Shown here in pieces: positions 12,455 to 57,222 of a stretch of DNA of 64,000 nt. The DNA is taken from the NCBI GenBank assembly GCA_028696995.1, contig JAQVFY010000002.1, positions 2,647 through 66,646 of the forward strand, given 5' to 3'. The notes under the pieces were generated by a model, which saw nothing but the letters and a program-made list of their open reading frames with translations, was not told where the DNA came from and ran no database searches. A program made the translations under genes and the position numbers. This DNA is from Patescibacteria group bacterium (GTDB taxonomy: Bacteria; Patescibacteriota; Patescibacteriia; Patescibacteriales; UBA12465). Position 1 is the first letter of the stretch; every line of letters starts with the position of its first letter.

Positions 12455-12907
12455 CTAATAACAAGTAGTAGTAGTAGGAATTATCCCTCCAGAAAAAGCA
12501 CATTTGATTCCAGCCGGCATATCAGCCACATTACCACCTAAACAAAATTCAATATAATAATCAGCTCCACTATTCACCTGATTATAAACATAAGAGGAGG
12601 TAGCACAATCACCATCGGCTGGAGTTGGACCATCCGGAACAGTATACATATAAGTATTAGATCCTGTAGCAATAGAAGATCCGGCTGTAACACTAGCTGG
12701 GTATTCACTCTGATCATTAAAATATAATTCTAAAGCAGTTTGTATTTGTCTAATATCAGTTATTCGCTTAGCATCACGAGCCTTACCACGAGCGCTTTGC
12801 AAAGCAACCACCGACAAAGTAGATAATATACCAATAATAGCAATAACAACTAAAAGTTCAATTAAAGTAAAACCTGGCTTTAAAAAATTTGTTTTTTTAT
12901 TAAACAT
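12455..12907 (-). CDS. Type IV pilin-like protein (prepilin N-terminal cleavage/methylation domain)
   Basis: MFNKKTNFLKPG then FTLIELLVVIAIIGILSTLSVVAL. This is a class III signal with G at -1 and E at +5. The C-terminal domain is small and contains Cys. Confidence 0.85.
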   Translation of the reverse strand: MFNKKTNFLKPGFTLIELLVVIAIIGILSTLSVVALQSARGKARDAKRITDIRQIQTALELYFNDQSEYPASVTAGSSIATGSNTYMYTVPDGPTPADGDCATSSYVYNQVNSGADYYIEFCLGGNVADMPAGIKCAFSGGIIPTTTTCY

Positions 12908-17882: not shown

Positions 17883-20105
17883 TTATTTTAATTTAAATTT
17901 TTTCTTAATATCAGCAATTAGAGGTTCAGCTCTATCTGGCTTGGGATTATAACGAAGCAACCAAAAAACTGCCGTTCTAAAAGATGTCCAACAATAATAC
18001 AGTTTAATTCTCTCCTTTAATCTAATATTATAGTTAATCTTAGCACTTCGACAATAAGTAGTAATAAAAATATCAATTATTTTTCTAACATAAGATCTAT
18101 TATAATTAAATTTTATTAATTTATACTCCAATTGCTGAATAAAAGACCCTAAATCACGAGCAAAATCTGAAGGACAAATGTCAGTAAAATCGATCATCGC
18201 TATTTTTTGACGACCCATTTTTATAATATTTTCCGGATGAACATCTCCATGTATCAACCACCTCTTAGAACTAAGATTAAAAAAATCTTCTTCCAATTCA
18301 ATTAAATAATCATAAATTTTCTTCAAATCTTTAACATACTTATCGTCATATTTATCTTTAACATTTTTTAAAACTTGATTATAGCCAGGAACAACTGTTT
18401 TAATTCTGCTATTTCTCTTATTAAAACTAATTATATCGGAAATTGGAGTTTTATGCAATTTTGCCAACCATTCCGCTGTTTTTTTCACAACTTTTTCTAC
18501 CTCTTTTTTTTCATTATTTTTAATAAAAGTTAATAAATCATCACCCTTAACTCCTCGATAAAAAGAGGCATTAAAATGTTTAGAATAAAACAAAGGCTTA
18601 GGAATTGTTAAAAAACCCTTAGAAAAACCATGCTCCCACAAATAACTCAAATTATCATAGACATTTTTCCTTGGTTCACTAGAATGAGCGGTACAAAAGA
18701 AAGACAAAGACTTAATATTTTTCTTTGATTTCCCGCCAATTTTAGGGATAAAGAAGGTTTTAAATTCTAAAACAACATGATAAGTTGTTTGCCAGATATA
18801 ATCCTTGTGATAAATTATTTTTATTCTTTCGATTTTTTTAAAATCAGGATAAAGTGGTAATATTTTTTTAGTAAAAAGATTTCTAACATAACTTTCACTC
18901 AATAATCTATTAATCTTATTATTACTCTTTAATTTATTGCGAGAATGATAAGACCAATGTTTACTCCAAACAGCTTTTTTAATCGCTACAAAAATATTTT
19001 CTGATTTAATTTTCTCGGCATAAGAAGTAGAATTTTCTAAAGACCGAATAGAGCGAATTAACTCATTAGCCCCTCTTTCGATTTCATCTGGATTCCAAGC
19101 TTGAGGACCAAAATTATGCTTGAAATCATTAGCACTAGCCCACCAAAAAGTACAACTAGCCAAACCCCTTACTAGATGCCAACGAAACCAATTGTAATTA
19201 ATATCATCTCTATTTTTTTCACCAATATTAACAGCTAAATTAACCAATTTCCAAAGTTTAGTATGAATTTCGTTATTTTTATCACTCCAAAGACGAAAAG
19301 GTTGTTTGGCTAATAACTCTTTTTCAGTTGATTCCCAATTACTTTTTCGAATCGTAATTTCCTCTATTTTTTTAAACTTAGAAATATAAGCAGAAATCAG
19401 AGATGTTTTTAATAATTTATTAGTTAAAACTTTTTCTAGCTTCCCATTATTATCATTATGTCTCAATCCATATAACTCTCCATCAGTAGCACTAATAATA
19501 ACTCGATCATCATTTTTATTCTTAATTTTACTTGTTAATATTTTTTCAATTTCATCAGGCACATAACAATTAGAAAATTTCCTAGAACGGAAAATAATTT
19601 TTAAAGCACTATTTTTATCAATATAAACATTTTCAGGAACAATCTTCTTGCGTCCCTGATAAGAAATTTCATCTAATATCAACCATTTATAACCAAGCTT
19701 CTTAACAATTTTGGCAACTTCAGAACTATAGGCCATTTCCGGAAGAAAAAACCCCTTCAATTTAGCTTTGGGAAAATACTTTTTAATTATTTCCTCATTT
19801 TCTTTAATTTGATCGCAAACCTCCCTTTTATTAACTAAAGGTAATAAAGCATGATAAGCAGCTGATCCGGTTAATTCAATTTGACCTCGCTCTAATAAAT
19901 TATTAATTTTTTCTATCAAATCAAAATATTTTAATTCTACTAAACGAGAAATTAAACAACCTGAAATATTAATATTAAATTTAATATCAGGATTATCCTC
20001 TAAGGCCTGAATAACCCTCTTGTAACTAAGCTCCACAGCTTCTTTTATTTTATAATAATCAGAATTAGCTGGTTGATACCAATGTAAAAAATTAATCCAC
20101 AACAT
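17883..20105 (-). CDS. Fusion protein: N-terminal GH57-family glycoside hydrolase domain plus C-terminal APH/choline-kinase-like phosphotransferase domain
   Basis: GH57-like regions: LHWYQP, RGQIELTGSAAYH, FFLPEMAY, SATDGELYG. Kinase motifs: LIHGDVHPENII (HGDxHxxN) and MIDFTD. 740 aa, immediately downstream of glgA. Confidence 0.65.
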   Translation of the reverse strand: MLWINFLHWYQPANSDYYKIKEAVELSYKRVIQALEDNPDIKFNINISGCLISRLVELKYFDLIEKINNLLERGQIELTGSAAYHALLPLVNKREVCDQIKENEEIIKKYFPKAKLKGFFLPEMAYSSEVAKIVKKLGYKWLILDEISYQGRKKIVPENVYIDKNSALKIIFRSRKFSNCYVPDEIEKILTSKIKNKNDDRVIISATDGELYGLRHNDNNGKLEKVLTNKLLKTSLISAYISKFKKIEEITIRKSNWESTEKELLAKQPFRLWSDKNNEIHTKLWKLVNLAVNIGEKNRDDINYNWFRWHLVRGLASCTFWWASANDFKHNFGPQAWNPDEIERGANELIRSIRSLENSTSYAEKIKSENIFVAIKKAVWSKHWSYHSRNKLKSNNKINRLLSESYVRNLFTKKILPLYPDFKKIERIKIIYHKDYIWQTTYHVVLEFKTFFIPKIGGKSKKNIKSLSFFCTAHSSEPRKNVYDNLSYLWEHGFSKGFLTIPKPLFYSKHFNASFYRGVKGDDLLTFIKNNEKKEVEKVVKKTAEWLAKLHKTPISDIISFNKRNSRIKTVVPGYNQVLKNVKDKYDDKYVKDLKKIYDYLIELEEDFFNLSSKRWLIHGDVHPENIIKMGRQKIAMIDFTDICPSDFARDLGSFIQQLEYKLIKFNYNRSYVRKIIDIFITTYCRSAKINYNIRLKERIKLYYCWTSFRTAVFWLLRYNPKPDRAEPLIADIKKKFKLK

Positions 20106-23990: not shown

Positions 23991-26597
23991 TTAATCACAA
24001 GGATTAACACTAGGAACACCATTACAACAATAGGGCTCTTGGGCTGTGGCTGAACAATTAAGACCAACACTAGGTTTAAAACAATTCTGATAAATATCTT
24101 TAACACCCGATCCAATTTGTGGAAAATAACTAGCTCCTTCAAAGAATTGAGCATGATTAATATAAGCATTGGTCTTATCTGGCTCCCCATCCAAGGGAGT
24201 GTCATCAATATTTTCTGCTCCTATCCAATAACCAACCAATTGACCGCTAAGTAAATTTATCAAACGATGAGCAACATCACCAATACCATTATTCATAATA
24301 ATTTCTCCAGTACGCAAGGTGCTAGCCATCATTAGTTTATTAAATCCAATTTTAACTGGAGCCCATAAATCAATATTGACATCATCTATTCCTGGGAAAA
24401 TAGAGGTTATCTGAGGAGGATCAGATTCTATTTTATCATTTATCCAAAAAGACCAAGACAAATTATCTCCACTTCCAGGCACAACACTATTCTTATAGTA
24501 AAAAGAGGCTGGCCCATTAGAATAACCATCACTATTTCCATCAAAAGAATTAAAAGAAGCATCTACTACCCCACTATTAGCATTAATATCAGCTAAAGAA
24601 TAAAATTTTCCATTACTATCAGTACAAATATTATTGGTACAAGTAGAAAAAGGGCTTTTATTGGAGCAATTACTATTATCTCCAGAACAATTAAATAAAT
24701 TAGAAGCCTCTATCTCTACTTTTAAATTACTATCTGATGGTAAACAATAAATATCCTCCCCGCAAGCATTAACTCCACAAAGATTATCAGATTTAAACTC
24801 AACGGTCTTGTAATCAGAAGAAATTTGAAATCGACCCGACAAAAAATTACCAACACAAGAAGAATTATTGCATTTTAAAGATCGACAATCACCACCTTGT
24901 GAACATACTTCTCCATTATCTTTAGCTGAAGCACTATTGTTCACAATTCTAATAGTATCAAAAATCTCATAACTCTCTCCTGAAACTCTTAAAGGATTAA
25001 TTGCCTCGTTGAAATTTATTTGAATAATACTATTCATGGGCTTGTCTTTTTTATCGTTAATATTTACAGATTCAACCGAGTTAGCTCCGCCAGAAAAGGG
25101 CTGAATAACAATTTTGTTAGAATCTGAAGAACTAACAGAAAAAAGATTTCCATTAAGACCGGCTATTTTATTAGTTAAATTAATTACCCCTGCTGTAGTA
25201 GATAAAACAGCCTCAATAGATGAATCAAGTGTATTTATAGCATTAACTAAATTAGTAGCCGTCTCAGTCACACTAGCTCCAATTTTAATATTAGAACCAG
25301 AATTATTACCATTGGTAAAATTATACATTAATGAATTTAAAATTACATAATCACTTTCAACTTTTTTGCTAACTTCAACATCCCAGGAATTACCAGCTAT
25401 CACGCTCGGGTTTGTTATATTCGAAGGAATTAACTTAAAATAACCAGTAAAATCAAAGACGTTAGAAACAGGAATAATATCAAAAACTCCCAAAGAAATA
25501 TTTCCACTACTAGAATCCTTACCAAATAATTGAGCCTTGTTTCCATTAGAATCAACCACAACCTCAAAAGAAGTATAATTTCCGTTATAAGTACCAAGAA
25601 TTGAAACATTGGCCGGAACTGACCCTGGTAAAGGAGTAACAGAAACGACACTAGCTGGCTGATAAGTGTTAAAATTATTAGTCAAAAAACTTATAGAGGC
25701 AGTAGCTGGAGTAGCACTTATTATAGATAAACTATCTTTAAGATTATCGGGTTGAGGAAAAATACTATTTATTTTAGGTGGAGTCAAATCTAAAACATTG
25801 CTAACCTCAAAATCCCATAAGAAATAATTACCGGAACAATTATCAAAAATACTACGACTTTCATCAACCACTAAAATATCGTTAGTAAAATAAACAATAT
25901 AATTAGTAAAACTATTTTCATTGCCCAAATAATTACTAGGTGTAAAAGTAAATATTTTATTATCTAAAGTATTAACCGAAAAACCAGTTGACTGAGAACA
26001 AGTTTTTTTATCAACGTCAAAATCACCCTCTTCGCAAATAATTACACTAGAGGTCGAAATAGTAGAAGAAGAAACTTCCTCTTTAAAAGTCGCCATAATC
26101 ATAGTATTTCTAGGAACAGCCTTTTGTCGAGGAGCTGGATAAACGCTCTCTAAACTACAAGCCCCAATAGCTCCTAAACCATTTTGAAAAAAAGCCTGAC
26201 CTGGAGAAATATTGCCGTTATTAGACTGTCCATCAGAAAACAAACTTCTAAAAATAAAAGTAACAATACCCCAAGCTGATAAAACTATAATCAAACCAAT
26301 AAGAGCATTTTTTAAAACTCTCTTAGCCTTAGATACTTTTTCCTCATTGCCTTCAGAAGTCATCCACAAAAATCCTCCAAATATAGCTAAAGAAACCGCA
26401 ATAATAGCTAAAAATCCTAAAGCTACATTTATAATTTTAACAATAATTGATCGAGGATCAGTAGATTCTAAAACAATAGTATTATCAACCGCTTCTATTC
26501 CTAAAGAATCACTGGCTAAAACAAACTTGCTAGCCAGAATTAAAAAAAACAAAAGAATAAAAGAAAACAATAAAAATATTTTTCTATTTTTCATCAT
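23991..26597 (-). CDS. Giant Cys-rich surface protein with N-terminal signal peptide plus TrbC/VirB2-like (T4SS-pilin-like) two-helix membrane module
   Basis: Signal peptide MMKNRKIFLLFSFILLFFLILA. Two helices, IINVALGFLAIIAVSLAIFGGFLWM and ALIGLIIVLSAWGIVTFIF, flank SEGNEEKVSKAKRVLKN. About 740 aa of S/N/T-rich sequence with Cys clusters follows. Confidence 0.6.
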   Translation of the reverse strand: MMKNRKIFLLFSFILLFFLILASKFVLASDSLGIEAVDNTIVLESTDPRSIIVKIINVALGFLAIIAVSLAIFGGFLWMTSEGNEEKVSKAKRVLKNALIGLIIVLSAWGIVTFIFRSLFSDGQSNNGNISPGQAFFQNGLGAIGACSLESVYPAPRQKAVPRNTMIMATFKEEVSSSTISTSSVIICEEGDFDVDKKTCSQSTGFSVNTLDNKIFTFTPSNYLGNENSFTNYIVYFTNDILVVDESRSIFDNCSGNYFLWDFEVSNVLDLTPPKINSIFPQPDNLKDSLSIISATPATASISFLTNNFNTYQPASVVSVTPLPGSVPANVSILGTYNGNYTSFEVVVDSNGNKAQLFGKDSSSGNISLGVFDIIPVSNVFDFTGYFKLIPSNITNPSVIAGNSWDVEVSKKVESDYVILNSLMYNFTNGNNSGSNIKIGASVTETATNLVNAINTLDSSIEAVLSTTAGVINLTNKIAGLNGNLFSVSSSDSNKIVIQPFSGGANSVESVNINDKKDKPMNSIIQINFNEAINPLRVSGESYEIFDTIRIVNNSASAKDNGEVCSQGGDCRSLKCNNSSCVGNFLSGRFQISSDYKTVEFKSDNLCGVNACGEDIYCLPSDSNLKVEIEASNLFNCSGDNSNCSNKSPFSTCTNNICTDSNGKFYSLADINANSGVVDASFNSFDGNSDGYSNGPASFYYKNSVVPGSGDNLSWSFWINDKIESDPPQITSIFPGIDDVNIDLWAPVKIGFNKLMMASTLRTGEIIMNNGIGDVAHRLINLLSGQLVGYWIGAENIDDTPLDGEPDKTNAYINHAQFFEGASYFPQIGSGVKDIYQNCFKPSVGLNCSATAQEPYCCNGVPSVNPCD

Positions 26598-26680
26598 AAA
26601 ATATATATTATTTATAAATTGATAACAAATTGCTTAATTGCAATTTTTATATTATTATTATAACATATAAAATAAAATAA

Positions 26681-34248: not shown

Positions 34249-35292
34249 TCAATTCTGAAGACAGCGAACTGAAAAACCGTAGATCTGATCATTACTACTA
34301 GTGTTAATAACAGCGTGACCAGAGAGAATATAGTGATCCCAAGCACCAGATCCCTCAACCGAAGACGACCAAAAGAGAGCATAGTCAGCAATACCATCAA
34401 AAAAACCATCGGCATCGCGACCACCAGCTGATAAGGCCGTGAAACCAGATTCATTAGTAGCTCCAGTATTAGGAGAATTCCAGTGAGTGGTTCCAACTTC
34501 TTTCATTTTGCCTCCAGCTACTAACGTTCCCCCTAAATAATTAATCAAAGTAACCCATTCGGAGTTAGATGGTATATGCCATCCTGAGGGACAAATTCCT
34601 TGATTTAGCTCAGTAGTAATTCCACACATAGATTGAGTCCATTGATATAATCCTCCATAAATATCACAATTACCTTCTAAATTATTATAACAATATTTTT
34701 CTATATTAGCACAACTTGTTCCCTGATCGCTAGAACCGTTCACCATAGTACCAATATTTAAATTTTTAGCCATCCAACATTGAGTACCAATCTGAACCGT
34801 AGGATAAAAATTTGAATCTCGAGAGTCTATTAAATTATCGCCGCAAGCCCAGGGGGTTAGAGTGGTTATACCACTAGGGCTAGCGACTTTAACCCCTTCG
34901 CCCAATCCTCCGACCCCTGATCCTGTACAGAATGTTATAGTATAAGTTGAACCGTCGGTTGATTCATAAATATAATTATTATCACTTTCAATACATTCTC
35001 CGTCTTGAGGAGTTGGGGCGGTTGGTACTGTTGCCATATAGGTTACTCCGGCTGTAGCAATAAAACTATCTATTTCCCCAGTTAAAGGATATGTTCCGTG
35101 ATCGCTTATATATAAAGATAAGGCTGTTTGAATTTGTCTAATATCAGCCATTCTTTTAAGATCTCTAGCGCGACCTCGAGCATTCTGTAAAGATACTACG
35201 GCAAGAGTTGCTAAAATACCGATAATAGCGATTACCACTAATAACTCTATTAGTGTAAAAGCGAGTTTATTAGATTTAAATTTTTTAAACAT
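34249..35292 (-). CDS. Type IV pilin N-terminus fused to a Fibrobacter succinogenes major paralogous (FISUMP) domain
   Basis: MFKKFKSNKLA then FTLIELLVVIAIIGILATLAVVSL. C-terminal motifs: QCWMAKNLNIGT, GGLYQW, CPSGWHIPSNSEWVTLINYLGG, AGGKMKEVGTTHW, NESGFTALSAGGR, ALFWSSS, GFSVRCLQN. Confidence 0.8.
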   Translation of the reverse strand: MFKKFKSNKLAFTLIELLVVIAIIGILATLAVVSLQNARGRARDLKRMADIRQIQTALSLYISDHGTYPLTGEIDSFIATAGVTYMATVPTAPTPQDGECIESDNNYIYESTDGSTYTITFCTGSGVGGLGEGVKVASPSGITTLTPWACGDNLIDSRDSNFYPTVQIGTQCWMAKNLNIGTMVNGSSDQGTSCANIEKYCYNNLEGNCDIYGGLYQWTQSMCGITTELNQGICPSGWHIPSNSEWVTLINYLGGTLVAGGKMKEVGTTHWNSPNTGATNESGFTALSAGGRDADGFFDGIADYALFWSSSVEGSGAWDHYILSGHAVINTSSNDQIYGFSVRCLQN

Positions 35293-47638: not shown

Positions 47639-50600
47639 CTAAACGTAAGTAACACTAGCCACGCAGTCATTTGCGTCTTTAAAGCGCATAATGCGGACTC
47701 CCTGGGTATCACGGCCCAATTCATTAACTGACTTATATGGCAAACGAATAACCTGCCCCTTATCGGAAATAATTATCAAATCCTTACCCTCCATGTTGTC
47801 CTTATTTATCACAAAGGCGTTACTAATTTTTCCGGTTTTATCGGTAACCTTAGCAGTACGAATACCACTGCCTCCACGACCCTGTAATTTATATAAATCC
47901 AAATCAGTTCTTTTTCCATAACCTTGATCCATAATAGTTAAAATCTGATAACTACGCTTAACTCCTTTTTCAACTTTTATAACCCCCATCCCAACAACAA
48001 TATCTCCCTTTTTCAATTTAATACCACGAACACCCGAAGCATTACGACCCATGTCACGCACCTCTTTTTCAGCAAAACGAATAGCTTGCCCATTGGCACT
48101 TATCAAACTAATATGGTCAGATCCAGAAGTTGGCTTACACCAAATCAATTTATCATCATTTTTTATCTTAATCGCTATCAAACCACTACGTCGGACATTA
48201 GAGAAAGCATTAATTTGTACTTTTTTAACTAAACCTTGTTCAGTAGCAAAGAATAAATAATTATAGGCAGCTATTTTATCCAAAGGTAAAATAGAGGTAA
48301 TTTTTTCTCCGCCAATTAATTGCAAGAAATTAACAATTGGAGTTCCCTTGGCGGTGCGAGAGGCCTGAGGAATTTCATGAGCTTTTAATTGAAAAACTCG
48401 ACCCTTGGTGGTAAAAAATAATATATCATTATGAGTTTGAGTAATAAACATGAAATCGACGCTATCCTCTTCTTTGGTGGTCAAACCAATAACACCCTTA
48501 CCTCCACGAGCTTGGACCTTAAAAGTATCAGGGTCTAAACGTTTAATATAGCCATCACGAGTCATCATTACCATTGTTTCTTCGTTTGGAATCAAATCTT
48601 CAACATTAAAACTCTTAACTCCATGAGCTACCACTTGGGTACGACGTTCATCACCAAATTTCTCTCCCAATTCTGTAATCTCAGTTTTAATAATATTTCT
48701 AATCTTGGCCTTAGAAGCTAAAATAGCTTCTAATTCTTTAATCAATTTTAATTTTTCCTTTAACTCATCCTCAATTTTAATCCTTTCCAAATTAGCCAAA
48801 CTTTGCAATCTCATCTCCAAAATAGCTATAGCCTGTCTTTCAGATAATTTAAATTTCTTTATCAAATTTTCTTTAGCTACATCCTTATCTTTAGATGCCT
48901 TAATAACTTTAATAACCTCATCAATATTTTTTAAAGCAATCATCAAGCCCTCTAAAATATGGGCCCTATCTTTGGCTTTATTTAATTCAAATTCAGTACG
49001 ACGATAAACTACTTCTTGGCGATGTTTAATATATTCCTCTAAAACCATTTTCAAAGTCAAAACCTTGGGCTGAATTCCATCAATCAAAGCTAACATATTA
49101 ACATGAAAAGTGCTTTGCAAAGCAGTGTTTTTATACAAACTATTTAATATTTTCTTAGGATAAGAATCTTTTTTAAGATCTAAAACAATGCGAACCCCTT
49201 CTTTATCAGACTCATCACGCAAACCCTTAACTCCGTCTAATTTTTTATCTTTAACCAAGTCGGCAATTTTTTCTACTAAGGTTGCCTTATTAACTTGATA
49301 AGGAATTTCGGTAATAATTATTTGAAAATTACCATTTTTATCTTCTTTAATATCAGCTCGACCACGACAAACTATTCCCCCTTTGCCGGTAGCATAAGCA
49401 TTTAAAATATCTTTTTTATCATAAATAATTCCACCAGTTGGGAAGTCCGGCCCCTTAACATGTTCCATTAAGTCTTCTACTGTAGATTCTGGTTTATCAA
49501 TCAATAAGTTTATAGCTCCAATCAATTCACTTAAATTATGAGGAGGAATATTAGTAGACATACCGACAGCAATTCCCATGCCTCCATTTAATAATAGGTT
49601 AGGTAATTTCGCTGGCAAAACCTGAGGCTCTTTTTGTGAACCGTCGTAATTAGGTATAAAATTAACGGTATTTTTATCAATATCAAATAATAATTCCTCA
49701 GTAATAGCTGATAATTTAGCCTCGGTATTATGATTTATGAAGCCATTAGCTATAAAGGAATGACAAGGGCTATCAACTTTAATAGAAAAAACATTTTCCT
49801 TGTCTTTCAAATTTTCCTTTGACTTAACTTGATTGAAAAAGTAATTATTCTTTAATAAATAATCAATCATTTTTAAATCTGAAGAATTTAAGATGCTCTT
49901 TAATTGATTATAATTTTTTCTTAAACTATTATAACGATCAAAATTGTTCTCAACTATAAAACTATTTTTATAATTTGATCTTAAATAATTATTTAAAAAT
50001 GGAATAAAGTCATTATGACTCAAGCGAGTAGTATTGATTTCCGAGATCTTAGATAAAATTCCTCTTTTACGTTGAGAAAAAAAGTTAATGTTTTTTTGAA
50101 AATTTACAATACTATCAACTCCGGAAATTATTAATTTATAGCAAGCATTTCTCTTATCCTGATAAGGAGAAGTAGTAACTACACCAAAATTCAATAAAAC
50201 TGTTTTTAATTGACTGATAAGTTTCTTGCTTTTAGAATTATAAGTCAGCTCAATAGACTGACCTGAATGTCTTTTGTCTTTTTTAAAAGAAACAGAACCA
50301 TCTCCCTCAAATAATGCTTGCAAAAAAGAAGAAATAACTACTCGGCTAGACATTAAAACAGAAAAAGGAATTTCCTTTGCGTCAGATTTTTTAGAAGACA
50401 ATCCAATTTCTTTCAAAAACTCAACAATATTTTTTTCATAAATACAAAGTTCTGGACAATTACCCTTTAAAATTCTTTCATATAATTTAACTTCCGGAAA
50501 TTGCTGAGAAATTATATTTTTAACTTTATTATAAAAATCTTTATCGGAATTACAAAAGAAAAATTTATTTTGATGATAAGACCCTTCTGACACTAAAGCT

Positions 50601-51565
50601 CCTAAAAGAAAAGCTAAGTCTTTAGTCATCTTTTTAGGTAGAGTAATTTTTTTACTCTTAATATTTTCTAAAGGATAAAATTTTTCTAAATCCAAATCAT
50701 CTTTAGAAAATAAAGACGCTCCTCGACTTAAAGGTAAATAATCATTTTTATTAATATTTTCTAAGGTTTTCCAATAAAAATAGGGTTGACCAAATTCGTT
50801 TAAGCCCCACAATAATAGAGGATGATTATATGAACCACGAATTTCATAACCCTGCTCAGTGCTTATTTTTACAATCTCATGCTTGCCAGAATTAAAAAAT
50901 TTAATAGCTGGTTTTATTTTCCCTTGATAATTTAAAATATTTATCTTTATTTTCTCTTCACTTTTTTTGGATAATGAATTTATTTCTACTAGACCTCGAT
51001 CAGTTAAAAGTAGCGTATCGCCAGTAATACAATACCTCATCGCCGCCGCACTATCACCGTCCATAGAACCAAAGTTTCCTTGACCCCGAACCAGCGGATA
51101 ACGCATCGAAAAGTCCTGCGCCATACGAACCATAGAATCATAAACAGCACTATCGCCATGAGGATGATATTTACCTAAAACTTCTCCAACCACTGTAGCT
51201 GATTTACGAAATTTAGCATTGGCCTTTAAACCAATATCCCACATCGCATACAAAATACGACGATGAACCGGTTTCATACCATCACGAGCATCCGGCAAGG
51301 CTCGAGAAACAATAACACTCATAGCATAATCCAGATAAGATGAGCTCATTTCTTCACTAATAGATTGATTTTGCACAACGCCAAATTCAGTTTGACGACG
51401 ACCATTACCATTTGTTTCTGTCGACTCTTCAATTGGATTATTTTCAACAACATCCTCAGAAATATCTTTAGAAATTTCCTTATCAGTACTCTTAGAAATA
51501 TCTTTTTTAGCTGGCTTAGCTGAATTATCAGCTATAGTCTTCTTATTTTTATCTGATTTCTTCAT
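47639..51565 (-). CDS. gyrA: DNA gyrase subunit A, interrupted by an in-frame intein
   Basis: Extein motifs [32 protein letters not shown] and AAMRY then TEAKLS, plus C-terminal beta-pinwheel repeats. 1308 aa including the 435-aa intein. The N-terminal extension of about 65 aa is K/E/S-rich. Confidence 0.95.
49727..51031 (-). mobile_element. GyrA intein with LAGLIDADG homing-endonuclease domain, inserted after the catalytic Tyr
   Basis: Residues 179-613 start [11 protein letters not shown] directly after AAMRY and end FINHN directly before TEAKL. LAGLIDADG blocks are [14 protein letters not shown] and [12 protein letters not shown]. Boundary codons were verified on the sequence (TGT at 51031-51029, AAT at 49729-49727). 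Confidence 0.9.
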
Positions 51566-53844: not shown

Positions 53845-54993
53845 CTATCTGGACTCCCAACGATCCCTACGAAGATTCACCCCGTAGACGTTCTTGCTTC
53901 CAATGGGAAGATAAAGAATCTTCGTTTCCTTAAACTTATTGCCATAGACAATAGTTGGAATTGAAGACTCCTTCAACCGCAGCTTGAGAGTCTTACCTGG
54001 CGCTATATTATAGCTTTTCCAGGTAACTCCCTCAAAGGCATCCGTCCGGAGGTCAACCTCCGTTTTTCTCCCCTTGGCGATATATTCGTCGGGGATGAAG
54101 ACAGTCACGTCTTCGTTGCGCGTGTTGCGCATCTTGACGAGAGTCCTCTTACCGGAAAACGTCGCTTTCCCTTCATCAGCAAATGCTAATGGGTTAAAGG
54201 AAGATTTTTCCAGAATGACCTCTCCTTTAGAGATAAAGGCAGTAACACGTTCCTCGCCCGATATCCCGTTGGGAAGCCCCAGACGACAAATGAAATCGTA
54301 AACCCCGTCCGGCATCATAGCTGGGGCCAAAAATTCAAGGTTGCCCTTGTCATTGGCCTTGATAACCATATTCACGTTCCACTGCTTATTTTGCAGTGAG
54401 AAGGTGAATCCGACAGGAGATTCAACCTTCAACGTTAAAACGTTGAGGCCGAGGTCGGCGGAGGTGATGGTGGCTCTAGCCAAAATGTCGTCACCATCTG
54501 GCTCGGAATTTTGGTCAAAGTTGATTTCAAGCAACTTCTTCACTCTTTCCCCGGTAAATGGATTAGTGAATTCGGCCTGGACCAAGAGCTTCTTGGCCTT
54601 GACATCCTTCAAAATGGAAGAATAAAGCAAGGCCGAGTCTGAGCTGGCACAGGTTGTGGTCGGCGCGGTGGCGAGCTGGTAGACATCGCCAATCTTGACG
54701 ACCCGGCTCACGAATGTGAACTGGGCGGTGCTCTTGTTGACGATGTTCGAAAACTCAATCCGGTTCCGGATGGTTCCGAAATTGCCGGAAAGATAATTCT
54801 CTTGGTAAGCCGGACTTTCCCGCAGGACCAGGTCCTTTAGGATAGTCTTGTTTTCAATTTCGATGTTGCCCACGAAGGACTTCATCTCAATCGGTAAACT
54901 ACTGATTGACCTGGACGGTGTGGTCTCCTGTGCCATCAAAAAAATCGGCACAAAAAAAACAAAAACAAACAAAATTCCAAAAAATTTTTTCAT
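53845..54993 (-). CDS. Secreted protein of unknown function (G+C-rich island gene 1)
   Basis: Signal peptide MKKFFGILFVFVFFVPIFLMAQ. The RBS AGGAG lies 8 nt upstream. 382 aa with no recognisable motif. G+C is far above the window background. Confidence 0.65.
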   Translation of the reverse strand: MKKFFGILFVFVFFVPIFLMAQETTPSRSISSLPIEMKSFVGNIEIENKTILKDLVLRESPAYQENYLSGNFGTIRNRIEFSNIVNKSTAQFTFVSRVVKIGDVYQLATAPTTTCASSDSALLYSSILKDVKAKKLLVQAEFTNPFTGERVKKLLEINFDQNSEPDGDDILARATITSADLGLNVLTLKVESPVGFTFSLQNKQWNVNMVIKANDKGNLEFLAPAMMPDGVYDFICRLGLPNGISGEERVTAFISKGEVILEKSSFNPLAFADEGKATFSGKRTLVKMRNTRNEDVTVFIPDEYIAKGRKTEVDLRTDAFEGVTWKSYNIAPGKTLKLRLKESSIPTIVYGNKFKETKILYLPIGSKNVYGVNLRRDRWESR

Positions 54994-55012
54994 GATACAG
55001 TCTCCTATTTTT

Positions 55013-55112
55013 ATTGGTTAGTTTAAAATTTAATTGTCTTGCAAATCAACAAAAAATGATATTAAATCAAATAAAATCATTGACTTGCTAGACAATTAAA
55101 ATATTAACCAAT
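55013..55112 (-). promoter_or_regulatory. Long imperfect inverted repeat forming an extended stem-loop in the leader of CDS 53845..54993
   Basis: The left arm ATTGGTTAGTTTAAAATTTAATTGTCTTGCAA (55013-55044) pairs with the right arm TTGCTAGACAATTAAAATATTAACCAAT (55085-55112). An inner AATGAT...ATCATT pair lies in the loop. Confidence 0.5.
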
Positions 55113-55141
55113 CTTGTTAATGTACCTAATTTTAACTTGAA

Positions 55142-55170
55142 ATTATAGCATATAAGCATTTTTTTGTCAA
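55142..55170 (-). promoter_or_regulatory. Consensus sigma70 promoter P1 (island gene 1)
   Basis: Minus strand: TTGACA-aaaaaatgcttatatgc-TATAAT, a 17-nt spacer with TGC giving an extended -10. Confidence 0.65.
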
Positions 55171-55393
55171 TAGAGGTATAAAATAGCTTAAAATAGGGGT
55201 TTTTATCAAAAAAATAAAAATTAAAAAATTATTATAATATCTTTATATTTTAAAAATTAAATATTTTAAACAATTAAAAATTTGCTTTGCGCACTTTTTA
55301 TATAAAATTTAATGACTGTTTCTGACTATTAATACTTATTATTTTAATTAAAATAAATATTTTTACTAACTGAATTTAAATAATAAATTCTAC

Positions 55394-55424
55394 TAATAAA
55401 AAAGCAGAGATTTCTCTCTGCTTT
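55394..55424 (-). terminator. Intrinsic terminator of CDS 55444..56148
   Basis: AAGCAGAGA (55402-55410), loop TTTC, TCTCTGCTT (55415-55423). The minus-strand transcript ends in a T-run. Confidence 0.75.
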
Positions 55425-55443
55425 ACCACGATTTGACTGAACC

Positions 55444-56148
55444 TTACCTGGTTCTGTCAAGGATGCCTTGCATGGCATCCATCGTAGCGATGGCCCTTTC
55501 CATCCCGCTTGAGCAGGAGGAAGTGGGGGCTGGTGTCGGAGCCGGAACTGACTGTGGAGCGGTAACCCGCTCAACCAATGCTTGGTTGAGCTGATCCTGC
55601 TGAGCATTACGCTCAGTTTGTTCCTGCTGGCCCCTCTCCAACTTACTGATCCGCCCCGAATTGGAGCGGGACCGACGATCAGCACTTCCGGCCAAGGCTT
55701 TGGCTCTCTCGGCTTCATCTTTGGCCAGATTGGCTCTGGTTTGAGCATCACTGGCCTCAATCTGGGCCTTGTCACCCCCCCTCTCAACATTTCTGTTGAT
55801 AAGGAAGCTGGCCACAAAGATGGCCAAGATCAATCCTCCGACAATAGCTGCAACTGCCCACCAGTTAACCACTGGGGAATTAACAACAGCAACGGCGTTA
55901 GCATTGTTGCCTTGTGCTGGGTTTGGCTGTGGCTGTGGTTGTGGTACAGGTGCTGGCTGTGGAGCCGGTTGCGGCTGTGGCTGCGGTACCGGTTGCGGTT
56001 GTGGCTGTGGAGCCGGTTGCGGTTGTGGCTGTGGCTGTGGAGCCGGTTGCGGTGCTGGTGCTGGCTGTGGAGCCGGTGCCGGTTGCGGCTGTGGTTGCGG
56101 TGTAGACGGAATATCGATGTAAGTTCCGTCCGGAAGATGAATTCTCAT
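55444..56148 (-). CDS. Bitopic membrane protein with P-Q/P-A repeat region and coiled-coil-like C-terminal half (G+C-rich island gene 2)
   Basis: Track ORF (TTG 56235) trimmed to ATG 56148, which has AAGGAGG 7 nt upstream. Sequence: MRIHLPDGTYIDIPST, then 63 residues of PQ/PA/PV repeats, the TM helix WWAVAAIVGGLILAIFVASFLI, then a Q/E/R/A-rich tail. Confidence 0.65.
   Translation of the reverse strand: MRIHLPDGTYIDIPSTPQPQPQPAPAPQPAPAPQPAPQPQPQPQPAPQPQPQPVPQPQPQPAPQPAPVPQPQPQPNPAQGNNANAVAVVNSPVVNWWAVAAIVGGLILAIFVASFLINRNVERGGDKAQIEASDAQTRANLAKDEAERAKALAGSADRRSRSNSGRISKLERGQQEQTERNAQQDQLNQALVERVTAPQSVPAPTPAPTSSCSSGMERAIATMDAMQGILDRTR
55912..56100. repeat. Degenerate 6-nt tandem repeats encoding the (P-Q/A/V)n tract
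   Basis: The plus strand reads GGCTGTGGCTGTGGTTGTGG...GGTTGCGGCTGTGG. All six frames are open here, which generates the WLWLW, GCGCG and VAVVA shadow ORFs in the track. Confidence 0.85.
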
Positions 56149-56311
56149 AATAACCTCCTTTTTTTTATTGTTTTGTAAATGAATTTGCTGGTCATTTGAA
56201 GTTATAAACAAATAATGCTTTATCAAAAAATACAAGAAAATGTCTATAAACTCAAATAACCAGTAAATTCAAAAACCTTTTTGTCAAAGTTCTATTTTTA
56301 ATTAACTGAGA

Positions 56312-56340
56312 ATTATAGCATATAGACAAAAATTTGTCAA
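56312..56340 (-). promoter_or_regulatory. Consensus sigma70 promoter P2 (island gene 2)
   Basis: Minus strand: TTGACA-aatttttgtctatatgc-TATAAT, followed by TCTCAGTT. Confidence 0.65.
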
Positions 56341-56457
56341 TACTACATAAAGCCTATAAAAACGGGCTATTTTAAAGTTTTCTAAAATATTATTAAAAAA
56401 ATTATTGAAAAAAAATAAATTTAAAATACCCTACTAATAAGAAGAATTTTACTGGCC

Positions 56458-56486
56458 TTGACTTTTTTTAATAAGTATGCTATAGT
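56458..56486 (+). promoter_or_regulatory. Near-consensus promoter P3 (island gene 3), divergent from P2
   Basis: TTGACT-ttttttaataagtatgc-TATAGT, followed by TCTCAGTT. The TATGCTATARTTCTCAGTT block is shared with P2. Confidence 0.6.
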
Positions 56487-56520
56487 TCTCAGTTGTGATT
56501 TAAAATTCTTTAACAAACAA

Positions 56521-56585
56521 TTAAAGTCTCTTTAGAGAATAGGAAGGCGGTTTTTCGTTCTTTTTATTTTCTAAAGAGATTTTAA
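56521..56585 (+). promoter_or_regulatory. 16-bp stem hairpin in the leader of CDS 56615..57199
   Basis: TTAAAGTCTCTTTAGA (56521-56536) pairs with TCTAAAGAGATTTTAA (56570-56585), with one G-U pair. The loop is 33 nt. The hairpin ends 30 nt before the ATG. Confidence 0.55.
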
Positions 56586-56614
56586 TTAAAAACAAACCAA
56601 AAAAAGGAGAGAAC

Positions 56615-57199
56615 ATGGCAACTATCACAAAAAAAAACGAAATCAGCGACGCCGATGTCGCCAAGATGATCAAAAAAATGGAATCCGGCTACCCCATCCA
56701 CAATGAAAAGGGGGTAATGATCGGAATCGAAATCGAAGGCGGAGAAAGCGTTATGATCTCCAACTGGGAGCACAAGGTGCTCGCTGTCTTCGAAAACGTC
56801 CGTTTCAGGACACCGCGGGAAGACGATCAGTACCTTAAATTTGTCGACACGGCGGTCACCCTGACCAGAGGTGGCAAAATTCTGGAAATTCCGGGATACT
56901 GGAGAAGGGGTGTGTGGATCGCCAAGAAATTGGTGACCGTCACCTATCGGATGGCTGGCCAAATGTCCGCTAAAAGCGTACCGATCGGAGTGGACGCGGT
57001 AGGTAAAGTAGAAATCCGCGAATCCAGCAACTCCCACACAGGAGAAAAAAGGATAATCATAGATTACTACTTTTACCCCTCCCCCGTGCAAACCTTCTAC
57101 GAGGTAAAAATCGGAGGAAAAAAAAGGGAGAGTACCGTATTCTCCAAACCCATCCCTGGAACCGAAGAACTTATTGTCGTCAACAAAATCGGAAAATAA
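56615..57199 (+). CDS. Soluble protein of unknown function (G+C-rich island gene 3)
   Basis: AGGAGA RBS 6 nt upstream, own promoter and terminator. 194 aa with no recognisable motif. Preferred over the antisense ORF 56582..57220, which has no signals. Confidence 0.6.
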   Translation: MATITKKNEISDADVAKMIKKMESGYPIHNEKGVMIGIEIEGGESVMISNWEHKVLAVFENVRFRTPREDDQYLKFVDTAVTLTRGGKILEIPGYWRRGVWIAKKLVTVTYRMAGQMSAKSVPIGVDAVGKVEIRESSNSHTGEKRIIIDYYFYPSPVQTFYEVKIGGKKRESTVFSKPIPGTEELIVVNKIGK

Positions 57200-57222
57200 T
57201 TTCCGACCAGTTGACGCCACAC

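Follow-up and report, generated by a model that had tools for sequence, protein, structure and literature searches.

The type IV secretion system (T4SS) pilins VirB2, TraM and TraA are alike in layout, with two hydrophobic helices on either side of a positively charged connection, which forms the lining of the pilus lumen, and in the T-pilus structure, in which the inter-helix loop takes this luminal position, the C-terminal Gly121 lies outermost (bioRxiv 10.1101/2022.04.28.489814). VirB2-like pilins, including members of PF18895, are found across the Patescibacteria (Candidate Phyla Radiation, CPR), often near virB4 and in arrays; the searched passages of the phylum-wide T4SS survey that reports them treat VirB2 as a small protein, record no PrgB-type adhesins, and make no mention of large pilin fusions (PMC12102498). 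The T4SS and a series of pilins are essential in Ca. Southlakia epibionticum (PMC10633639; PMC12857230), and reviews still present pilus formation by the VirB2-like proteins of Patescibacteria as a possibility (PMC12857230). Groundwater CPR cells, when imaged by cryogenic transmission electron microscopy, bear pili, have a surface layer that is periodic (3.8 and 10 nm) and lack an outer membrane (PMC7906910), while the composition of the CPR envelope has been stated as unclear or unknown (PMC5220378). It is established for type IV pili that modular pilins exist in which an adhesin module is grafted onto the pilin module (PMC8179133). Here we analyzed a gene located at positions 23991..26597, on the minus strand, of a 64,000-nucleotide stretch of contig JAQVFY010000002.1 from a Patescibacteria group bacterium (hereafter, the window). 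On balance, we read its 868-residue product as a modular VirB2-type pilin for surface display, with a conserved role in the envelope or in attachment.

The gene is an ATG-initiated open reading frame (ORF) of 868 codons plus a stop, and all features described below for it lie on the minus strand, which had been left unstated in an earlier description made by a model from the sequence alone (the original prediction). All the peptides quoted in that description were recovered in the translation, namely SEGNEEKVSKAKRVLKN (residues 81-97), GEVCSQGGDCRSLKCNNSSCVG (562-583), NCSGDNSNCSNKSPFSTCTNNICTD (636-660) and EPYCCNGVPSVNPCD (854-868). With a GC content of 31% in the window, an ORF length of 2.6 kb is far from chance, and the existence of more than 120 full-length homologues, with 820-1,002 residues and 37-63% identity, points the same way. 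The protein is identical to an NCBI entry labelled 'MAG: pilin [Patescibacteria group bacterium]', where MAG stands for metagenome-assembled genome.

The N-terminal region reproduces the predicted succession of a signal peptide followed by two hydrophobic helices. The signal peptide comprises residues 1-28 (MMKNRKIFLLFSFILLFFLILASKFVLA; 26514..26597), with its hydrophobic region at approximately residues 8-27; in the AlphaFold2 (AF2) model, a helix at residues 5-23 is followed by a disordered stretch. A28 is conserved in at least 90% of the sequences in the orthologue alignment, and this conservation fits a signal-peptidase site, so that cleavage would be expected after A28. A short, presumably extracellular N-terminal segment (residues 29-47; 26457..26513) then ends in the conserved motif D47-P48-R49, which is common to small stand-alone pilins, and leads into the VirB2/TrbC-type pilin hairpin (residues 48-119; 26241..26456). 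In the AF2 model this hairpin consists of helix 1 (residues 48-79), a turn with the sequence TSEGN (80-84), and helix 2 (85-119), whose beginning is basic owing to K87, K90, K92, R93 and K96, with K92 conserved in at least 90% of the orthologues. The layout of T4SS pilins, a signal peptide and two hydrophobic helices with a short positive connection, is therefore present, the cleavage being deduced as above. The Pfam family PF18895 (T4SS_pilin) was detected on residues 51-115 with an E-value of 9.5e-10 and 38.9 bits, against a gathering score of 26.6, and the NCBIfam model NF045849, which describes the Mbov_0395 family of pilin-like conjugal transfer proteins from mycoplasma integrative and conjugative elements (ICEs), on residues 50-116 with 44.4 bits, against a cut-off of 40, and an E-value of 9.6e-12. 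All 42 aligned orthologues match PF18895, and eight of them also match PF04956 (TrbC/VirB2), with a best E-value of 5.4e-6. The hairpin is the best-conserved part of the protein, with a mean pairwise identity of 60%, as compared with 32-49% in the domains of the ectodomain and 26-35% in the linkers.

To determine how widely this module is distributed, residues 40-122 were compared by phmmer with 1.84 billion cluster representatives, yielding 29,115 matches at E<=1e-3 and 5,001 at E<=1e-10, in proteins of 117 to 3,663 residues. The original prediction had described the hairpin as a recurrent N-terminal module, and this distribution, from small pilins up to 3,663-residue proteins, bears it out. 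Among the best 150 matches, three groups were distinguished: small stand-alone pilins (for example of 131 and 134 residues, 52-55% identical over the hairpin), proteins of 500 to 3,663 residues with a single N-terminal hairpin, and proteins in which 2-17 tandem hairpins follow one signal peptide. The small pilins of 131-134 residues carry the same motifs as the window protein (DPR, GFLGIIAV, WMTxxGNEE and AK..L..A.IGL), and the identity between the window hairpin and small stand-alone pilins is 52-61%. Those with the closest hairpins (P0188, P0256, P0222 and P0230) lie on contigs of 0.7-1.5 kb or on contigs absent from the records, and their genomic context is unreadable. Examples of the proteins with 2-17 hairpins are P0121 (555 residues), P0130 (239 residues) and P0128 (1,775 residues). 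In P0121 and P0130 the linkers are continuous and contain no internal signal peptides, and these two therefore look like genuine poly-hairpin membrane proteins and not like fused gene calls. Hairpins that are covalently linked are read as a sign of side-by-side packing.

What sets the window protein apart from a small pilin, whose mature form of ~60-130 residues is essentially the hairpin, is that 749 of its 868 residues follow helix 2. A flexible linker rich in Ser, Gly and Asn (residues 120-144; 26166..26240), with a short helix at 132-143, a predicted local distance difference test score (pLDDT) below 50 at 120-133 and a pairwise identity of 26%, separates the hairpin from an ectodomain of ~80 kDa that is rich in Ser and Asn and has an isoelectric point (pI) of 4.33. 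The full-length AF2 model (mean pLDDT 86.3, predicted template modelling score 0.66) shows the hairpin followed by beta-rich domains, and the ectodomain is composed of three immunoglobulin (Ig)-like domains of the Big_5/SbsA type, one more beta domain and a small alpha/beta domain. Ig-like domain 1 (residues 145-270; 25788..26165) contains Cys 147, 188, 200 and 254 and matches Big_5 (PF13205) with an E-value of 4.9e-12, or 7.8e-10 when the segment is searched in isolation. It is followed by the all-beta domain 2 (residues 271-398; 25404..25787), which matches no family and, with a pairwise identity of 32%, is the most variable region. Next comes the small alpha/beta domain 3 (residues 399-505; 25083..25403), delimited by its AF2 secondary structure; in a profile comparison with PDB entry 8fop (E 0.0021) it weakly resembles the domain that phage tail sheath proteins expose, and this was the sole weak signal for domain 3 that could be reproduced. 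Ig-like domain 2 (residues 506-722; 24432..25082) is a divergent Big_5 domain that reaches an E-value of 0.12 over its N-terminal strands, its extent being deduced from motifs; it carries two Cys-knot inserts (565-581 and 637-658) and the invariant motifs CGVNxCGExIYCLP and NSxDGN. Ig-like domain 3 (residues 723-868; 23994..24431), likewise a divergent Big_5 domain, scores E 0.0076 in the window protein and 2e-13 at the equivalent place of the orthologue at locus L049, and is characterized by an invariant C-terminal Cys tail (839, 848, 857, 858 and 867) and the motif GSGVxDIYQNCxKPS. Big_5 is matched by the window protein and by 42 of 42 orthologues.

Two further claims about the ectodomain could be examined in the same alignment. 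Its description as rich in clustered cysteines was partly sustained: there are four clusters, and 12 cysteines are invariant among the 42 orthologues, but the total of 20 amounts to 2.7% of the ectodomain, so that the richness was overstated, and the first quoted cluster (565-581) belongs to an insert absent from ~20% of orthologues. The suggestion that relatives be inspected for hypervariable regions gave a negative answer across the 42 orthologues, in which the all-beta domain 2 and the alpha/beta domain 3 are simply the least conserved. Comparison of the fold with solved structures by Foldseek gave the S-layer protein SbsC as the best match (E 2e-7), with template modelling (TM) scores of 0.11-0.13, together with CopC (TM 0.79 to the target, 21% identity) and LdtMt2, for which TM-scores were low and the alignment length suits its Ig-like domains. 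A fold search of the viral library BFVD returned a tail sheath protein as well as phage proteins that contain SbsA Ig-like domains. The expectation that the ectodomain belongs to no known enzyme family also held, since it proved Ig-like instead: none of the thresholds tried with Pfam and NCBIfam gave an enzyme family, and Foldseek gave no enzyme core. Similarly, Pfam families for SLH or cell-wall-binding domains had no match at E<=0.01, anchoring being provided by the membrane hairpin instead. Several candidate assignments were discarded. Matches of the full-protein and hairpin profiles to an antibody heavy chain and to the 'Pizza' designer protein in the PDB are spurious short alignments, and the protein has no sequence relative among PDB entries; an assignment of the alpha/beta domain 3 to Flagellin_IN (E 1.2, plus a visual resemblance) was rejected because 0/32 orthologue segments match; and segment matches to GbpC (E 0.017), TraU (E 0.16) and RP854 are far below cut-offs, were not reproduced, and were considered noise. 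A reading of NSxDGN as a calcium-binding loop was set aside in favour of the simpler one, judging by the motif, that it represents the usual D-x-A-G-N-like end motif of Big_5 domains.

Relatives of the protein are encoded in 501 genomes (one genome per species was scanned), many of them titled Falkowbacteria and including the complete chromosome CP066698.1. Of the 77 loci whose upstream flank is long enough, 73 have a divergent relA/spoT gene as the neighbour, usually followed by hisS-lepB-queA-ruvB, and the pilin-type gene is apparently single-copy, chromosomal and placed among housekeeping genes. This conserved synteny, together with the presence of the gene in ~501 genomes, indicates a vertically inherited chromosomal gene and not the cargo of a mobile element or T4SS island. 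Two peculiarities of the database records were observed in passing. In one MAG (CAYGOK01), two complete syntenic sets of relA, short gene and giant gene (L030 and L068) occur on different contigs, for which a mixed bin of two strains is more likely than true paralogy; in addition, L001, L003, L004 and many other loci whose synteny is clearly that of Patescibacteria bear the record title 'uncultured Gammaproteobacteria bacterium', or in one case 'Bacillota bacterium', names that are evidently wrong.

The giant gene of these sets is a second same-strand ORF that directly follows the orthologue in 61 of 80 loci and bears the same hairpin (98-128 bits with a purpose-built hidden Markov model (HMM) of the hairpin). 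Where complete, its product is mostly ~1,500-2,200 residues long; examples are L049:12698-18409 and L012:12751-18630, in addition to 59 other loci. The L049 giant partner (1,903 residues) combines TIG, Big_5 and fn3-like domains, is truly Cys-rich, and is homologous to the window protein only over its first ~129 residues, with 46% identity. A third gene at this locus (L049:18426-22097) encodes a secreted Cys-rich protein of 1,223 residues with a He_PIG Ig-like match and without a pilin hairpin. In the clade of the window, as in four other loci, recA occupies the position of the giant partner, and among all window ORFs of at least 100 residues, which were scanned, there was no second pilin module (next-best match E 0.086); the proposed search for paralogues was fruitful in relatives, which have an adjacent one, and not in the window. 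Across the 61 loci, the identity between short and giant hairpins is 0.69 within the same locus and 0.58 across loci, as compared with 0.62 among short orthologues and 0.59 among giant orthologues. None of 10,000 pairing permutations reached 0.69, the own partner was the best match in 30 of the 61 loci, and the fraction of identical codons at identical residues was 0.52 versus 0.43. The greater likeness of paired hairpins within a genome could result from concerted evolution or from co-adaptation; whatever the cause, the two hairpins are kept alike inside each genome.

These observations can be assembled into a mechanism. The protein would be exported by Sec and its signal peptide removed after A28, whereupon the hairpin would insert with its basic turn in the cytoplasm and both ends outside, or with the turn facing the lumen if it were assembled as a pilus. 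Because both ends of an inserted hairpin would lie outside, all residues C-terminal of helix 2 would be displayed externally through the flexible linker of ~25 residues, and since the C-terminus of VirB2 is outermost in the T-pilus, a C-terminal cargo would point outward, whether from the membrane or from a pilus. Most likely, the hairpin would pack against other pilin hairpins, or be handled by pilin or T4SS machinery, so that the Ig-like chain would be held at the cell surface or on the exterior of a pilin assembly. We infer that the hairpin is not a passive anchor from four observations taken together: its conservation, its near-identity to small pilins, its homogenisation with the partner and its repetition within single proteins. 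Most likely, the protein would serve in the envelope or in attachment, as a conserved structure made constitutively by a Falkowbacteria-like lineage, and would bind a conserved ligand or its partner protein; a factor for variable host specificity is made less likely by the conservation, with no hypervariable region, and by the synteny with housekeeping genes. The role as an adhesin or host-interaction factor put forward in the original prediction is a plausible hypothesis.

Several results weigh against the interpretation as a modular pilin for surface display. No T4SS genes (VirB4, VirB6, VirB3 or coupling protein) were found among the ORFs of at least 100 residues in the 64-kb window, and in 80 related loci the only neighbours recognised were the housekeeping genes relA to ruvB and recA, plus the giant surface proteins; in neither case was the gene seen in a T4SS locus beside virB4, virB3 or virB6, as would be expected of a pilin. 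The window protein itself did not reach PF04956 (TrbC/VirB2) at E<=0.01 in the Pfam scan, so that the TrbC/VirB2-type layout claimed in the original prediction passed two pilin models, PF18895 and NF045849, and missed the classical one, which only eight of the 42 orthologues match. A search of the PDB with a hairpin-only model (pLDDT 80.6) by Foldseek retrieved only generic helical hairpins, none at E<=0.001, and did not discriminate, and the sequence profile of the hairpin found no solved pilin among PDB sequences. In addition, the codon identities of 0.52 and 0.43 imply that gene conversion or shared codon bias may contribute to the likeness of paired hairpins, and because the window genome lacks the giant partner, the co-evolution argument is borrowed from relatives.

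Three other explanations were considered. The protein could be a true pilus subunit or tip adhesin, its hairpin being extracted and polymerised by a T4SS, alone or with small pilins, and its Ig-like chain decorating or capping a filament that contacts the host. The 52-61% identity to small stand-alone pilins speaks for this, as do the documented VirB2-like pilins and essential pilin arrays of Patescibacteria (PMC12102498, in the passages searched; PMC10633639), an adhesin role left vacant if, as the same passages of that survey indicate, no PrgB-type adhesins occur in the phylum (PMC12102498), the exterior position of the VirB2 C-terminus on the T-pilus (bioRxiv 10.1101/2022.04.28.489814) and, by analogy, the grafted adhesin modules established in type IV pili (PMC8179133). 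Nevertheless, T4SS linkage is absent from the window and was not seen in related loci, the ectodomain is conserved and not diversified, and a VirB2-like pilus in Patescibacteria is only a possibility in reviews (PMC12857230); we regard this explanation as rather unlikely. We assign a similarly low probability to an S-layer-like coat, in which the hairpin would be an exapted membrane anchor and the Ig-like chain, with the giant partner where present, would self-assemble into the periodic CPR surface layer. In favour of a coat, SbsC is the best solved structural match (E 2e-7), the Big_5 domains are Ig domains of the SbsA type, and the pI of 4.33 makes the ectodomain acidic. The conserved gene lies, apparently as a single copy, in a syntenic position among housekeeping genes; CPR cells, moreover, have a periodic outer layer and no outer membrane (PMC7906910), with an envelope composition stated as unknown (PMC5220378). 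However, SbsC TM-scores of 0.11-0.13 denote shared Ig-like beads and not a shared architecture, and the Pfam scan found no SLH or cell-wall-binding domain. A content of 20 cysteines is also atypical for bacterial S-layer proteins. In addition, a passive anchor is not expected to be the best-conserved region of a protein, nor to co-evolve with the anchor of a neighbour.

A third explanation, a tethered extracellular enzyme or nutrient-capture protein with a catalytic or metal site formed by the invariant His777, His815 and Tyr836-Gln837-Asn838-Cys839 together with the Cys clusters, appears very improbable. The invariant polar and His residues do cluster in the last domain, and CopC, an Ig-like protein that binds copper, matches the structure well locally, with a TM-score of 0.79 to the target and 21% identity. 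Against this, no threshold tried in Pfam or NCBIfam brought out an enzyme family, the alignments with LdtMt2 have low TM-scores and a length that suits its Ig-like domains and not its catalytic domain, and the conserved motifs, as we read them, coincide with positions that are usually structural in Big_5 domains.

In the window, the gene is followed downstream by recA, an amino-acid-kinase-family protein, ruvC, glycogen synthase, a GH57 protein and ftsK, and preceded by the divergent relA/spoT and then hisS, lepB, queA and ruvB. The 83-bp divergent spacer common to the pilin-type gene and relA/spoT contains a promoter-like -35/-10 pair (TTGTTA, 17 nt, TATATT; 26600..26628, minus strand), a candidate assigned by its match to the consensus. 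A simple scan found no terminator between the gene and recA. Adjoining glycogen synthase, positions 17883-20105 (-) encode a 740-residue protein with GH57 glycoside-hydrolase and APH-type phosphotransferase domains. Elsewhere in the window, a GyrA gene at 47639-51565 (-), of 1,308 residues in total, is interrupted by an intein with a LAGLIDADG homing-endonuclease domain; three consecutive ORFs of 382, 263 and 212 residues at 53845-57220 (-) are without a match in Pfam; and at ~55344-56235 several ORFs of both strands overlap.

The large Ig-like proteins with a pilin hairpin, in this uncultivated lineage, provide concrete candidates for clients of the pilin machinery and for components of the cell surface. 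They bear on how the ultra-small CPR/Patescibacteria form an envelope and adhere to hosts, and on why a single-membrane bacterium has an essential T4SS with many VirB2-like pilins. Automated annotation already says 'pilin' or 'Ig-like domain-containing protein' for them, and HMM-based counts of 'VirB2-like pilins' mix true small pilins with giant surface proteins. Our literature search found no description of large proteins anchored by a pilin hairpin, of the relA-linked gene pair or of hairpin co-evolution. A bolder proposal, which we consider speculative and improbable, would make the hairpin a general surface-display and anchoring device of the Patescibacteria, bearing cargos that range from a few to more than 3,500 residues; the relA-linked pair (~890 and ~1,950 residues) would assemble through co-evolving hairpins into a T4SS-dependent envelope superstructure, either a periodic surface layer or a 'bottle-brush' filament with Ig-like chains.

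Compared with known systems, the modular type IV pilins, such as Streptococcus sanguinis PilB (PMC8179133), follow the same design principle, with a C-terminal adhesive module, and the analogy would be functional: type IV pilins belong to an unrelated superfamily, with a class III signal peptide, an N-methylation motif, a single long helix and another machine, and the window protein gave no match to the type IV pilin motif N_methyl (PF07963). The same genome does encode two type IV pilin-like proteins with an N-terminal methylation motif, at window positions 12455-12907 (-) and 34249-35292 (-), the latter being a modular type IV pilin of 347 residues with a Fib_succ_major domain. The Geobacillus S-layer proteins SbsA and SbsC resemble the ectodomain in their Big_5 'beads on a string', SbsC being its best solved match. 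SbsC, however, lacks a membrane hairpin and is anchored to a cell-wall polymer through its N-terminal domain, whereas the window protein has the hairpin and Cys-knot inserts, with TM-scores of only 0.11-0.13 between the two.

The remaining systems share the hairpin. The TrbC/VirB2/TraA pilins of Gram-negative T4SSs (PF04956; T-, N- and F-pilus) have the two hydrophobic helices and the positive connecting region, but their mature forms are 64-74 residues long and carry no cargo, and the window protein neither reaches PF04956 nor finds a solved pilin by sequence or fold. Mbov_0395 and MMCAP2_0565 (NF045849) also come from single-membrane organisms and belong to a family whose cut-off the window hairpin exceeds. 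The NF045849 model spans 80 positions and describes a small ICE-encoded protein, whereas the window module begins a large protein that is encoded on the chromosome and not in a mobile element. With the VirB2-like pilins of Patescibacteria (PF18895), including the arrays of Ca. Southlakia epibionticum and TM7x, the window protein shares a signal peptide, the two-helix hairpin, the same HMM and, for small pilins, 52-61% identity over the hairpin. These pilins are ~120-190 residues long, often stand in tandem arrays, frequently beside virB4, and diverge within arrays to a mean identity of 25%, according to the passages searched in the survey (PMC12102498). The window protein, in contrast, has 868 residues with a 740-residue ectodomain, is unlinked to such loci, and is well conserved.

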